NCBI GenBank assembly: GCA_030614705.1
Contig: JAUWTN010000002.1
Span: 1 to 41,624 of the forward strand
Source of the DNA: Candidatus Aenigmatarchaeota archaeon
GTDB lineage: Archaea > Aenigmatarchaeota > Aenigmatarchaeia > QMZS01
Reading direction: 5' to 3'
DNA: 41,624 nt
Part shown: piece after piece, positions 38,768 to 41,624 of the stretch
How positions within the stretch are numbered: position 1 is the stretch's first letter
How the letters are laid out: every line of letters begins with the position of its first letter
Position numbers and translations under genes: made by a program
The notes under the pieces: model-generated
The model's database searches: none
The model's input: the letters and a program-made list of their open reading frames with translations, nothing else
Told to the model about the DNA's origin: nothing

Positions 38768-41624
38768 ATTTGGTGCTTAGGAATTAGTGAGAATGGGCTG
38801 AATACCTCGCCGAAGCTTGGTACTTACACCCTTCTTCTATCAAGCTCATCTTCTATGAGCACCTGTATTAATCTCTTTTTCAGAGCGGCTTCGAGCTTAG
38901 ATGCTTTCAGCTCTTATCCGCGATGGCGTAGCTACCCGGCAGCGCAATCACGACCGGTACACCAGTGGCCACGAGAGCCCGTTCCTTTCGTACTACGGCT
39001 CCCTTCCTGTCAGATTAGAACACTCTCAGCAGATATAGACTGAACTGGCTCACGCCGTTCTTAACTCAGCTAACGTGCCTCTTTAAGCAGTAAACCCCTG
39101 CACCCTTGGGTGCTTATGCACACCCAGGAGGAGACGAGCCAACAACGGAGTAGCAACGCGCCCCGTCGATATATACAATACCAAAAATTTATTTTGGTCG
39201 ATAGTTTCCTCTATTGAGAAAACCGTCGTATGTACTCTCGGGGGCCACGGCTCCATTATCCCTGGGGTAGCTTTTCTGGAGTTACAATCAGCCACTAAAG
39301 CAAAATTGCATATCGCTAACTCATGCTTTCGCACCTGGATTCTTTACTTCGCGGAATCCAATCAAACCAGCTTTTGCGTTTACACTCTACCCAAGATTTC
39401 TGACCTTGGTGAGCTGATCTTTGAGCGCCTCTGATGAATTGTTAGAGGCGTGGCGCCCCACCCAAACTACCCACCAACTGGTGTCCCTCACGGAGAGGTA
39501 AGCAGTAATTTTTGAAAAGGATAGTGTTACACTTTCGCCGAAGCTCCTATCTACTCTGTACAATCCAAAAATTACTACAACAGCAGGCTGTAGTAAAGCT
39601 CCACAGGGACTACTCTTCCCACTGAGAGTCTCTGGCCTATTCACCAGAAAGAAAGTTCGCTAGGTTTCAATTTGGGACAGTGAAAACCTCGTTGGACCTT
39701 CATGCAGGCCGACGTTTAATCGGCAAGGGATTGCATTACGACTGTTAATAATTTGCTGTTCATGTTCAGCAATTCATATGACCGTATTTACGCTACCTTA
39801 AGACGGTCAAGGTTACCGCCGCCGTTTACCAGTCCTTCGTCCGGTTGAAACCGGATTTGAGGTGCTGGCACTGGGCAGGCTTCACCGACTATACACACCC
39901 TTTCGGGCTAGCAGTCAGCTAAGTTTTTATTAAACAGTCGGGTTTTCCTTGTAACTGAGACCTATTATTCAAAAAGATAATAGGCATGGCTTGTACCAAG
40001 GGTACACCACTAACTTGCCGAATTCCCTAAATTGAATTATCCTATCACGCCTTCGCCTACTCAGCGTAAGCACCTGTGTCGGTTCTGGGTACTATCCACA
40101 GATCAATACTCTACTTAGTTTTCACAGGATCCAAGACACGGCTAAACCTTCATACGAAGGCTCATCACGCATTCGCTTCCTTCTCCTCATTACGAGACTC
40201 CAGAAGTTTCTACGCTTGATTTGCACTAGCTTATCTTAAACCTCTAAGTAAATAAAACCTGCGGGTACTGGAATATTAACCAGTTTTTCTTCGAAAATCT
40301 ATGTTAACGATAAACTTAGAATATAGACTAACCCCTACCTGAACGTCATTGGTAGGGAACCCTTGCTTACTTTAGGCGATGGTGATTCTCACACCACTTT
40401 GCTGCTACTTTCAGTAAGATTCTTGTTCTTGAAAGGTCCACCTTTCCTTAAAGAAAGGCTTCTGCCCTAACAAGACACCTTCCTACCATTCCTTGCGGAA
40501 TCTAACATATCGGTAAATAACTTAGCCCCGTCCATCTTCAGAACATATTCCCTAGGTAGGTGAGATATTACTCATTCTTTAAAGGATGGCTACTTCTAAG
40601 CCTACCTCCCTACTGTTTTAGAAAATATATTCTTTCATCACTTAGTTATTATTTTAGGACCTTAATGCTAGTCAGGGTTGTTTCCCTCTTGGGCACCGAG
40701 CTTTCCCCAGCAACCCTCACTCCGTTTTAATAATGGCCAACGCTTATGAGTTTGACTGGATAGCGAAGGATTTCTCCCCCTACTACCTAATCAGTATCTT
40801 TACACATTGGTCTATAAAAAACAGGCTGAACTTCGGTTCATTTCGGAAGGAACCAGCTATTGCCAGACACGATTGGCTTTTCACCCCTATTCCCGGATCA
40901 TCCGAGCGAGTAGCACATCAGCAACGGTGCAGGCCTCCATGCAGCTTTCGCTGCACTTCACCTTGTCCCGGAATAGATCGTCTGGCTTCGGGTCTCAGAC
41001 CTATGACTAATCGCACTTTCATACTCGCTTTCGCTATGGTTGCCCTCTTTAAAAGGTTAACCTTGCCATAGATCTAAACTCCTTACCCCGTTTTTCAGAA
41101 CGGATACTGTACTGCTTAGTTTCAGGTTCTTTTCACAGGGTGTTACCCCTTCTTTTCAGCTTTCCCTCACGGTACTAGTTCACTATCGGTCTTGAATTAT
41201 ATTTAAAGTTGGAAGTCAGTGTCTCCCATGTTCTTGCTGGAAATCCAACCAACAATACTCAGGAACATTCCCACTCTTCCTCATAAGTTAGATCTACCGG
41301 ACTATCACCTTCTATGGTATCTCTTTCCAGAGAATTTCGATCGTCCTCATCGGAAGTAAGGAAGTCCATACCCCACATGTTCCCTATCTTGCGATAGGGA
41401 ATTCGGTTTGCTTTTCTCCGTTTTCAATCGCCTTTACTAACGGAATCTCAATTGATTTCTTTTCCTGCGGGTACTAAGATGCTTCAATTCCCCGCGGTCC
41501 CTCTCTTAAAAAAGAGCAATTCGGAAATCCTTGGTTCTTAGGCTGCATGCACCTCGCCAAGGCTTATCGCAGCTTGCCACGTCCTTCTTCGGATATCAAG
41601 CCAAGCCATTCACTAAACAGTTTA
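38768..41624 (-). rRNA. rrl: 23S (LSU) rRNA, nearly complete; the 5'-most ~10-15 nt lie beyond the window and the 3' end is approximate
   Basis: The reverse complement contains GAAGGACGTGGCAAGCTGCGATAAGCC (5' domain), GGTAAACGGCGG...TAAGGTAGCG (H69-H71), GGGATAA (PTC), AGTACGAAAGGAAC (SRL) and GCTGAAAGCATCTAAGC (3' domain). It is a GC-richer island. No 5S gene follows it. Confidence 0.95.

Follow-up and report, generated by a model that had tools for sequence, protein, structure and literature searches.

How far can the catalytic core of a ribosome be rebuilt within a lineage, when the peptidyl transferase centre (PTC) is usually regarded as frozen? The question is raised by the 23S, or large-subunit (LSU), ribosomal RNA (rRNA) gene at the end of a contig from Candidatus Aenigmatarchaeota archaeon (order QMZS01; assembly GCA_030614705.1, contig JAUWTN010000002.1), the whole 41,624-nucleotide stretch of which is referred to here as the window. 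A preliminary description of the window, made by eye against E. coli, had listed a series of PTC substitutions, several of them apparently reciprocal, and had read them as a functional, co-evolved and atypical PTC shell rather than a decaying pseudogene. On the basis of structural alignment, base-pair statistics and comparison with related genomes, we suggest that the gene very probably encodes a working 23S rRNA that keeps its inner shell and whose second shell and tunnel entrance were remodelled in the course of the lineage's evolution.

The gene and its active-site ring

The gene occupies one end of the window:

38765–41624, minus strand: archaeal 23S (LSU) rRNA gene (RF02540), its 5' end truncated by the contig end

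It matches the archaeal LSU covariance model RF02540 over model positions 14–2987 with 2183.1 bits (Infernal; threshold 50), that is, it exceeds the gathering threshold and is full length apart from the 5' end lost at the contig end. E. coli numbering was set by K-12 rrlH (L183) with anchored extraction of six PTC segments, and the variant columns carry the highest posterior probability ('*') in the Infernal alignment. The three PTC strands of the window are the same by Infernal and by direct reading (GGGAUAAUGGAGCCGU, GCUACUCCGUUGUUGGCUC and CUGAGUUAAG). The structural alignment thus places the bases where the eye had placed them, and every substitution listed in the preliminary description is confirmed by Infernal, by direct reading and by the rrlH numbering, as is the retention of A2451 (39256), U2585 (39063) and A2602 (39046). 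The segments concerned are the following:

39251–39262, minus strand: PTC ring 5' strand, G2445–G2456, with A2451 kept (39256), U2452 (39255) and G2453 (39254)
39141–39154, minus strand: PTC ring 3' strand, 2494–2507, with U2499 (39149), C2500 (39148), U2503 (39145) and U2507 (39141)
39060–39069, minus strand: ring strand 2579–2588, with A2582 (39066), which pairs with U2507, and A2586 (39062)
39608–39614, minus strand: ring strand 2057–2063 at the tunnel entrance, with U2059 (39612) and U2062 (39609); A2060, G2061 and C2063 kept
39091–39097, minus strand: A loop, 2551–2557, with G2552 (39096), G2553 kept (39095) and U2556 (39092)
39041–39055, minus strand: helix 93 (H93) and the ring end, with G2593:C2600 (39055:39048) in place of U:A, A2602 kept (39046) and A2607 (39041)

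Several departures lie beyond the range of the preliminary description, namely A2059U, A2062U, U2552G, C2556U, G2607A, the G2593:C2600 pair and a 59-nucleotide (nt) insert in helix 89 (H89). Around the catalytic centre and the tunnel entrance, roughly twelve bases that are normally conserved have been replaced. Scored at the 32 ring positions that are invariant across 30 Halobacteriota LSU genes and E. coli, the window departs at nine. The kept bases include C2498, C2501, G2502, G2505 and U2506 in the 2494–2507 strand and G2583, U2584 and U2585 in the 2579–2588 strand, and all of the substrate-contacting bases are present (A2451, U2506, G2553, G2583, U2584, U2585, A2602, C2063, G2061 and A2450). 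Across all sequences compared (that is, the order, the phylum sample, the 30 Halobacteriota and E. coli), A2060, G2061, C2063, A2450, A2451, G2454, C2498, G2502, G2505, U2506, G2553, G2583, U2584, U2585, A2587, G2588 and A2602 are invariant.

The archaeal baseline

How unusual the remaining positions are depends on the domain taken as reference. Published base counts for approximately 2,439 archaeal and approximately 40,500 bacterial species (supplementary file 3 of Nissley et al., 10.1101/2024.11.12.623245) give, for archaea, U2059 in 1.3%, U2062 in 9.9%, U2452 in approximately 15%, U2499 in 25%, C2500 in 8.5%, U2503 in 3.4%, C2503 in 19.6% and A2586 in 8.0% of species, with a base other than A at 2503 in 23%; in bacteria, the same window states all stay below 0.3%. 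The U2452 frequency is taken from the archaeal column labelled "2453", as that block appears to be shifted by one position ("2450" is 99% U, and "2451" and "2452" are 99% A). Positions 2452, 2499, 2500, 2503 and 2586 are therefore near-invariant in bacteria and variable in archaea, and the earlier characterization of the substituted bases as near-universal holds for bacteria but not for archaea. Our Halobacteriota outgroup also varies, with C2452U in 4 of 30 genes and A2453G together with C2499U (A:C to G:U) in 2 of 30 (the genes involved are L188, L189, L195, L198, L196 and L213), so that 2452 and 2453 are not invariant even in ordinary euryarchaea.

The same correction applies to part of H89. 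The pairs 2455:2496, 2456:2495 and 2457:2494 had been described as compensatory with E. coli as the only reference; A2455:U2496 is, however, present in 26 of 30 and G2456:C2495 in 30 of 30 Halobacteriota, in agreement with the Rfam archaeal consensus, and G2455A/C2496U and C2456G/G2495C are therefore differences between domains. Only C2457 is specific to the lineage in this helix, and it changes the pair on one side alone (U:G to C:G). In two further searches, blastn of the PTC region of the window against E. coli genomes returned no match, and a collection-wide pattern search for bases other than A at 2503 yielded, among the matches listed, mostly random ones in GC-rich bacterial genomes.

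Two layers of change among relatives

The comparison covered 91 genomes of the phylum (in GTDB, a single class), 54 of which have an LSU gene; the order consists of one family with 17 genomes, eight of them with an assembled LSU gene. As outgroup we used the 30 Halobacteriota LSU genes, from a sample centred on a Natrialba genome that itself has no assembled LSU gene, together with E. coli. The distribution of states shows that the changes, as far as these genomes represent the lineage, were inherited in two layers, one phylum-wide and one fixed in the order.

The phylum-wide layer, as reconstructed from this sample, comprises U2452, G2453, variable 2499/2500, the loss of A2503 and U2586C. Outside the order, U2452 (29 of 34 sequences) and G2453 (27 of 34) are the majority states, 26 of 37 sequences have C at position 2503, compared with six that have U and five that have A, position 2586 is C in 21 of 27, and A2497 is kept in 8 of 37. 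The order-fixed layer, delimited by the same comparison, comprises A2059U, A2062U, A2503U, the C2507U:G2582A pair, U2586A and C2556U, each of these substitutions being present in all eight LSU genes of the order even though the genes are only 78–88% identical overall. C2507U is absent from 37 other members of the phylum and from the 30 Halobacteriota, and C2556U occurs in 1 of 35 others of the phylum and in none of the 30. Departures from the 32-position ring number 7–9 within the order and 1–5 elsewhere in the phylum. Some positions are less uniform: U2552G is found in six of the eight genes, 2499/2500 take the states UC, GU, UU and UA within the order, and G2607A is confined to the window and L008. 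With several conserved second-shell positions changed and the variation shared by a clade, the locus is, on the evidence of these alignments, very probably a natural divergent archaeal PTC.

Two side observations concern the A loop. The gene L158 (genome G090, family f25) retains canonical C2452, A2453, C2499 and U2500 and nevertheless combines A2503C with the A-loop sequence GGUUU (that is, U2552G and C2556U), which suggests that its A-loop variant, although matching that of the order, may have had an independent origin. Only 2 of the 91 phylum genomes, G012 (C78:2408-2953) and G015 (C49:3490-4035), both from genus g3 of the order's own family, encode an FtsJ/RlmE-type methyltransferase at full length (E = 1e-55 to 1e-59), all other matches being weak and partial methyltransferase matches; most of the phylum thus appears to lack FtsJ/RlmE, the usual maker of Um2552. 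No correlation between U2552G and loss of FtsJ/RlmE can be drawn, as the two genomes with a strong FtsJ both lack an assembled LSU gene.

Matched changes in base pairs

At three pairs the comparison shows changes on both sides, namely C2507:G2582 to U:A, U2593:A2600 to G:C and A2453:U2500 to G:C. The first is the clearest. Position 2507:2582 is U:A in all eight genes of the order and C:G in 25 of 25 sequences elsewhere in the phylum and in 30 of 30 Halobacteriota (U:A in 0 of 55 outside the order), so the reciprocal change recognized in the preliminary description did alter both partners; every LSU gene of the order has it, and no other sequence in the sample does. The second, G2593:C2600 in place of U:A, is likewise present in eight of eight.

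For G2453, the partner originally proposed was U2499, through replacement of an A2453:C2499 wobble by G:U. Such a G2453·U2499 pair is possible in the window, but related genomes lend it less support than they lend 2453:2500: positions 2453 and 2499 form a standard pair in 25 of 72 sequences (A:C or C:A in 23 more), compared with 62 of 72 (A:U, G:U or G:C) for 2453 and 2500. C2500 therefore appears to fit the data better as the partner. Nissley et al. (10.1101/2024.11.12.623245) state that E. coli has an A2453:U2500 and a Ψ2504:C2452 pair, and G2453:C2500 of the window would thus be a Watson–Crick replacement of the former. A further association links two tunnel bases, as U2062 is accompanied by U2503 in all 10 cases in which it occurs, from two families.

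Alternative explanations

The departures could also belong to a decaying rRNA pseudogene or spare copy, with a canonical 23S rRNA gene elsewhere in the genome. At 2183 bits the gene scores low for an archaeal LSU (2750–2990 in Halobacteriota), and the source assembly (729,106 bases in 55 contigs) is 78% complete. The gene is, however, the sole LSU match in that assembly (G000), and a second, canonical copy was also sought and not found in two relatives of higher completeness, G011 at 95% and G014 at 96%; in both, the single LSU match carries the signature. A single copy in all three genomes argues that the gene is functional, in line with the preliminary description, and a signature conserved over genes 78–88% identical, double changes that maintain helices (2507:2582, 2593:2600 and 2453:2500) and an intact inner shell are also difficult to reconcile with decay, which we regard as very improbable. 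An origin of the variants in misalignment, misassembly or chimerism would be in keeping with a metagenome-assembled genome (MAG) whose rRNA gene lies at a contig end, given that rRNA is frequently mis-binned, and yet seems still more remote: the Infernal columns have the highest posterior, anchoring on E. coli rrlH yields identical numbering, and identical bases recur in seven other MAGs of the order. The rRNA gene is moreover contiguous with 38 kb of Aenigmarchaeota-type genes, and the contig proteins have relatives at least 90% identical that are named Candidatus Aenigmarchaeota or Aenigmatarchaeota archaeon at NCBI, from which it follows that the rRNA belongs to its own genome.

Several points nevertheless weigh against our reading of the gene as a remodelled, working 23S rRNA, very probable as we hold it to be. 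Its functionality is concluded from sequence comparison, and the consequences for drug sensitivity and nascent-chain sensing are extrapolated from mutants of other organisms. An assembly that is 78% complete leaves some room for a second rrl copy, and the compared sequences are kin, so that the independent support is smaller than the tallies of shared states and pair types would suggest. The co-occurrence of U2062 and U2503 appears to go back to approximately two lineages and cannot be general, as archaea hold 242 species with U2062 and 84 with U2503.

Functional implications and the question of selection

If the gene is functional, the matched changes would preserve the geometry around the catalytic site, and peptide-bond formation would for this reason be expected to proceed normally. 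What would be altered is the drug-binding crevice (2452/2453/2499/2500/2504) and the A2062–A2503–U2586 triad that senses the nascent chain. Archaeal ribosomes appear to be more tolerant of such changes than bacterial ones, and the fast-evolving rRNA of a small-genome symbiont would then have accumulated and compensated them. Given that viable resistance mutants exist at the same positions, altered drug binding in the order's ribosomes is likely, and given that all three sensor bases are replaced, sensing may have been lost or rewired. A bolder proposal would combine these elements: the whole tunnel-entrance sensor set (A2059, A2062, A2503 and U2586) and the drug crevice would have been swapped, with 2062 and 2503 jointly U/U, stalling lost or rewired, and the ribosomes intrinsically insensitive to PTC and tunnel inhibitors. 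We put this forward tentatively, as a conjecture that is rather less probable than not; if true, the joint change of A2062/A2503 to U/U would be an instance of natural covariation pointing to a functional 2062–2503 contact.

Whether the remodelling was itself selected is a related question. The macrolide, phenicol and oxazolidinone sites are lined by A2058, A2059, A2062 and A2503, and the changes might have been adaptive, selected for the loss of binding sites for natural products (that is, PTC and tunnel drugs of neighbours or hosts), rather than compensated drift. In favour of this, C2452U, C2499U and U2500C confer sparsomycin resistance in Halobacterium halobium (PMC13462262), C2452U confers tiamulin resistance in Thermus thermophilus, where A2453G and U2500C are known from earlier drug selections (PMC7345174), and for Thermoprotei the same possibility has been put forward by Nissley et al. 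(10.1101/2024.11.12.623245). The rRNA as a whole is, however, fast-evolving, as drift in small-genome symbionts predicts, and members of the order differ freely at 2499/2500 (UC, GU, UU and UA), as if under relaxed constraint rather than at a selected optimum. On these two grounds we favour drift and consider selection for drug evasion unlikely, at about one chance in a few.

An insert in the H89 loop

The tip of H89, between the two strands that carry most of the substituted bases, holds the largest departure of the region:

39171–39229, minus strand: 59-nt AT-rich insert in the H89 terminal loop, between two PTC strands; candidate relaxed bulge–helix–bulge intron or retained expansion

Infernal counts 61 inserted nucleotides in this loop, compared with two in the model. 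The insert folds with z = −4.2; taken together with the canonical exon pairs that close the loop (G:C and A:U), the predicted fold contains a helix of four base pairs (bp; 4/4 paired) between GUAC (39235–39232) and GUAU (39176–39173). On the 3' strand, a 3-nt bulge, AUA (39172–39170), adjoins the G:C and A:U loop-closing pairs; on the 5' strand, AUA (39231–39229) lies in an internal or multibranch loop with no clean bulge, and the outer helix has one of five pairs. Excision restores GUACAUAUCGAC, the canonical loop of the insert-free relative L005 and of E. coli, and as both bulges read AUA, cuts at matching positions give GUACAUAUCGAC whichever position is used. Inserts of 29–268 nt occupy the same site in 24 distinct relatives, 20 of which have 4/4 central pairs, with covariation in the central helix (GUAC/GUGC, GUCC/GGAU, GUUC/GAAC, GCUC/GAGU and others); most of those from beyond the order form the second outer helix as well, which completes the bulge–helix–bulge motif. 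The source genome has an open reading frame (ORF) of 292 amino acids (aa) for a splicing endonuclease with a tRNA_int_endo_N and a catalytic domain (E = 9e-25); the gene, at G000:C13:11986-12864 (L214:1474-2352, minus strand), encodes, besides one N-terminal and one catalytic domain, an unassigned N-terminal stretch of approximately 115 aa.

We lean towards the view that the insert is spliced out as a candidate intron. The competing view, that the 59 nt stay in the mature rRNA as an unspliced expansion segment, is only somewhat less plausible than an even bet. It draws on the degenerate 5' half of the motif in the order (1–3 of 5 outer-helix pairs), on the ability of the 5' 'bulge' to pair instead in some members, and on the order's inserts, which range from 0 to 135 nt and lengthen, from 35 nt up to 135 nt, as hairpin modules are repeated. 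Retention would nonetheless have to accommodate relatives from other families (L014, L162, L176 and L178) with the canonical motif at the same site (4/4 and 5/5 pairs), the 4-bp helix and 3-nt bulge that all members of the order preserve, with covariation, alongside an insert-free L005 with the canonical loop, the restoration of that loop by excision in every case, and the encoded splicing endonuclease.

Other rRNA inserts were seen in passing. A second small insert at approximately 39733–39790 (minus strand), at the H70/H71 junction after GACCGUCUU, measures 60 nt by Infernal, compared with two in the model, and probably represents a further mini-intron or expansion like that in H89. In the relatives L169 (3363-4134), L011, L018, L166, L177 and L021, an intron lies inside the PTC strand itself, after GGGGAUA (approximately 2449/2450); the exon downstream restarts with AAUGG (that is, U2452/G2453), and within the L169 intron lies the gene for a LAGLIDADG homing endonuclease of 208 aa (PF14528, E = 2e-19).

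Comparison with known systems

The nearest precedent is the work of Nissley et al., who describe natural divergent PTCs in Thermoprotei and Methanomethylicia and tie tolerance of them to a short uL3 loop (10.1101/2024.11.12.623245). The order resembles these cases, including the Pyrobaculum calidifontis ribosome, in showing lineage-wide second-shell variation with the catalytic bases kept, in the involvement of 2453 and 2500 and in the overlap with drug-resistance mutations, and the supplementary counts of that study already show archaeal variation at 2059, 2062, 2452, 2499, 2500, 2503 and 2586. It belongs, however, to another phylum, and Aenigmatarchaeota (a DPANN lineage) go unmentioned in the text of Nissley et al.; no paper linking Aenigmatarchaeota or DPANN to PTC variation was found in the literature searched. 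The set of positions is, as far as the alignments tell, a different one, including the closing pair of H90 and the tunnel sensor triad: A2059U, A2062U, A2503U, C2507U:G2582A, U2586A and C2556U here, compared with G2447A, A2453C, U2500C, C2501A and U2504C there. At 2453:2500, the sequence predicts a Watson–Crick G:C pair in place of the C/C network of the Thermoprotei and Methanomethylicia.

The H89 insert shares with archaeal bulge–helix–bulge rRNA introns a 4-bp helix and 3-nt bulge beside exon–exon pairs, a shared site and an endonuclease gene in the genome; it differs from them in that the order's 5' half has no clean bulge and the insert contains no ORF.

Laboratory mutants with a single rrn operon offer a second comparison. 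In H. halobium, sparsomycin resistance is conferred by C2452U, C2499U and U2500C, all of them viable (PMC13462262), and T. thermophilus collections include C2452U (tiamulin resistance), A2453G and U2500C (PMC7345174). The substitutions are identical to those seen here and each is viable alone, but the laboratory mutants are single, selected and often come with a growth cost, whereas here the changes occur together, are inherited and go along with changes in the pairing partners.

Natural working alternatives of this kind distinguish PTC bases that are indispensable from those held in place by their partners, and the order could guide the engineering of ribosomes whose active-site shells or drug pockets are altered. 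This value is tempered by the fact that the phenomenon is known from other archaea and that published counts show archaeal variability at most of the positions. A further comparison is with the exit-tunnel sensor A2062–A2503–U2586, the same three nucleotides that are U, U and A in the order. Koch et al. (2017) found these bases to be dispensable for bulk translation and needed for ErmCL stalling, and argued that they are conserved for nascent-chain monitoring and not for catalysis (PMC5499644), and d'Aquino et al. report A2503, A2497 and U2586 to be mutationally flexible (PMC7049736). Elsewhere in the phylum, A2503 has given way to C or U in 32 of 37 sequences. In replacing A2503, A2062 and U2586, the bases argued to be kept for sensing, the order therefore offers a natural test of that idea.

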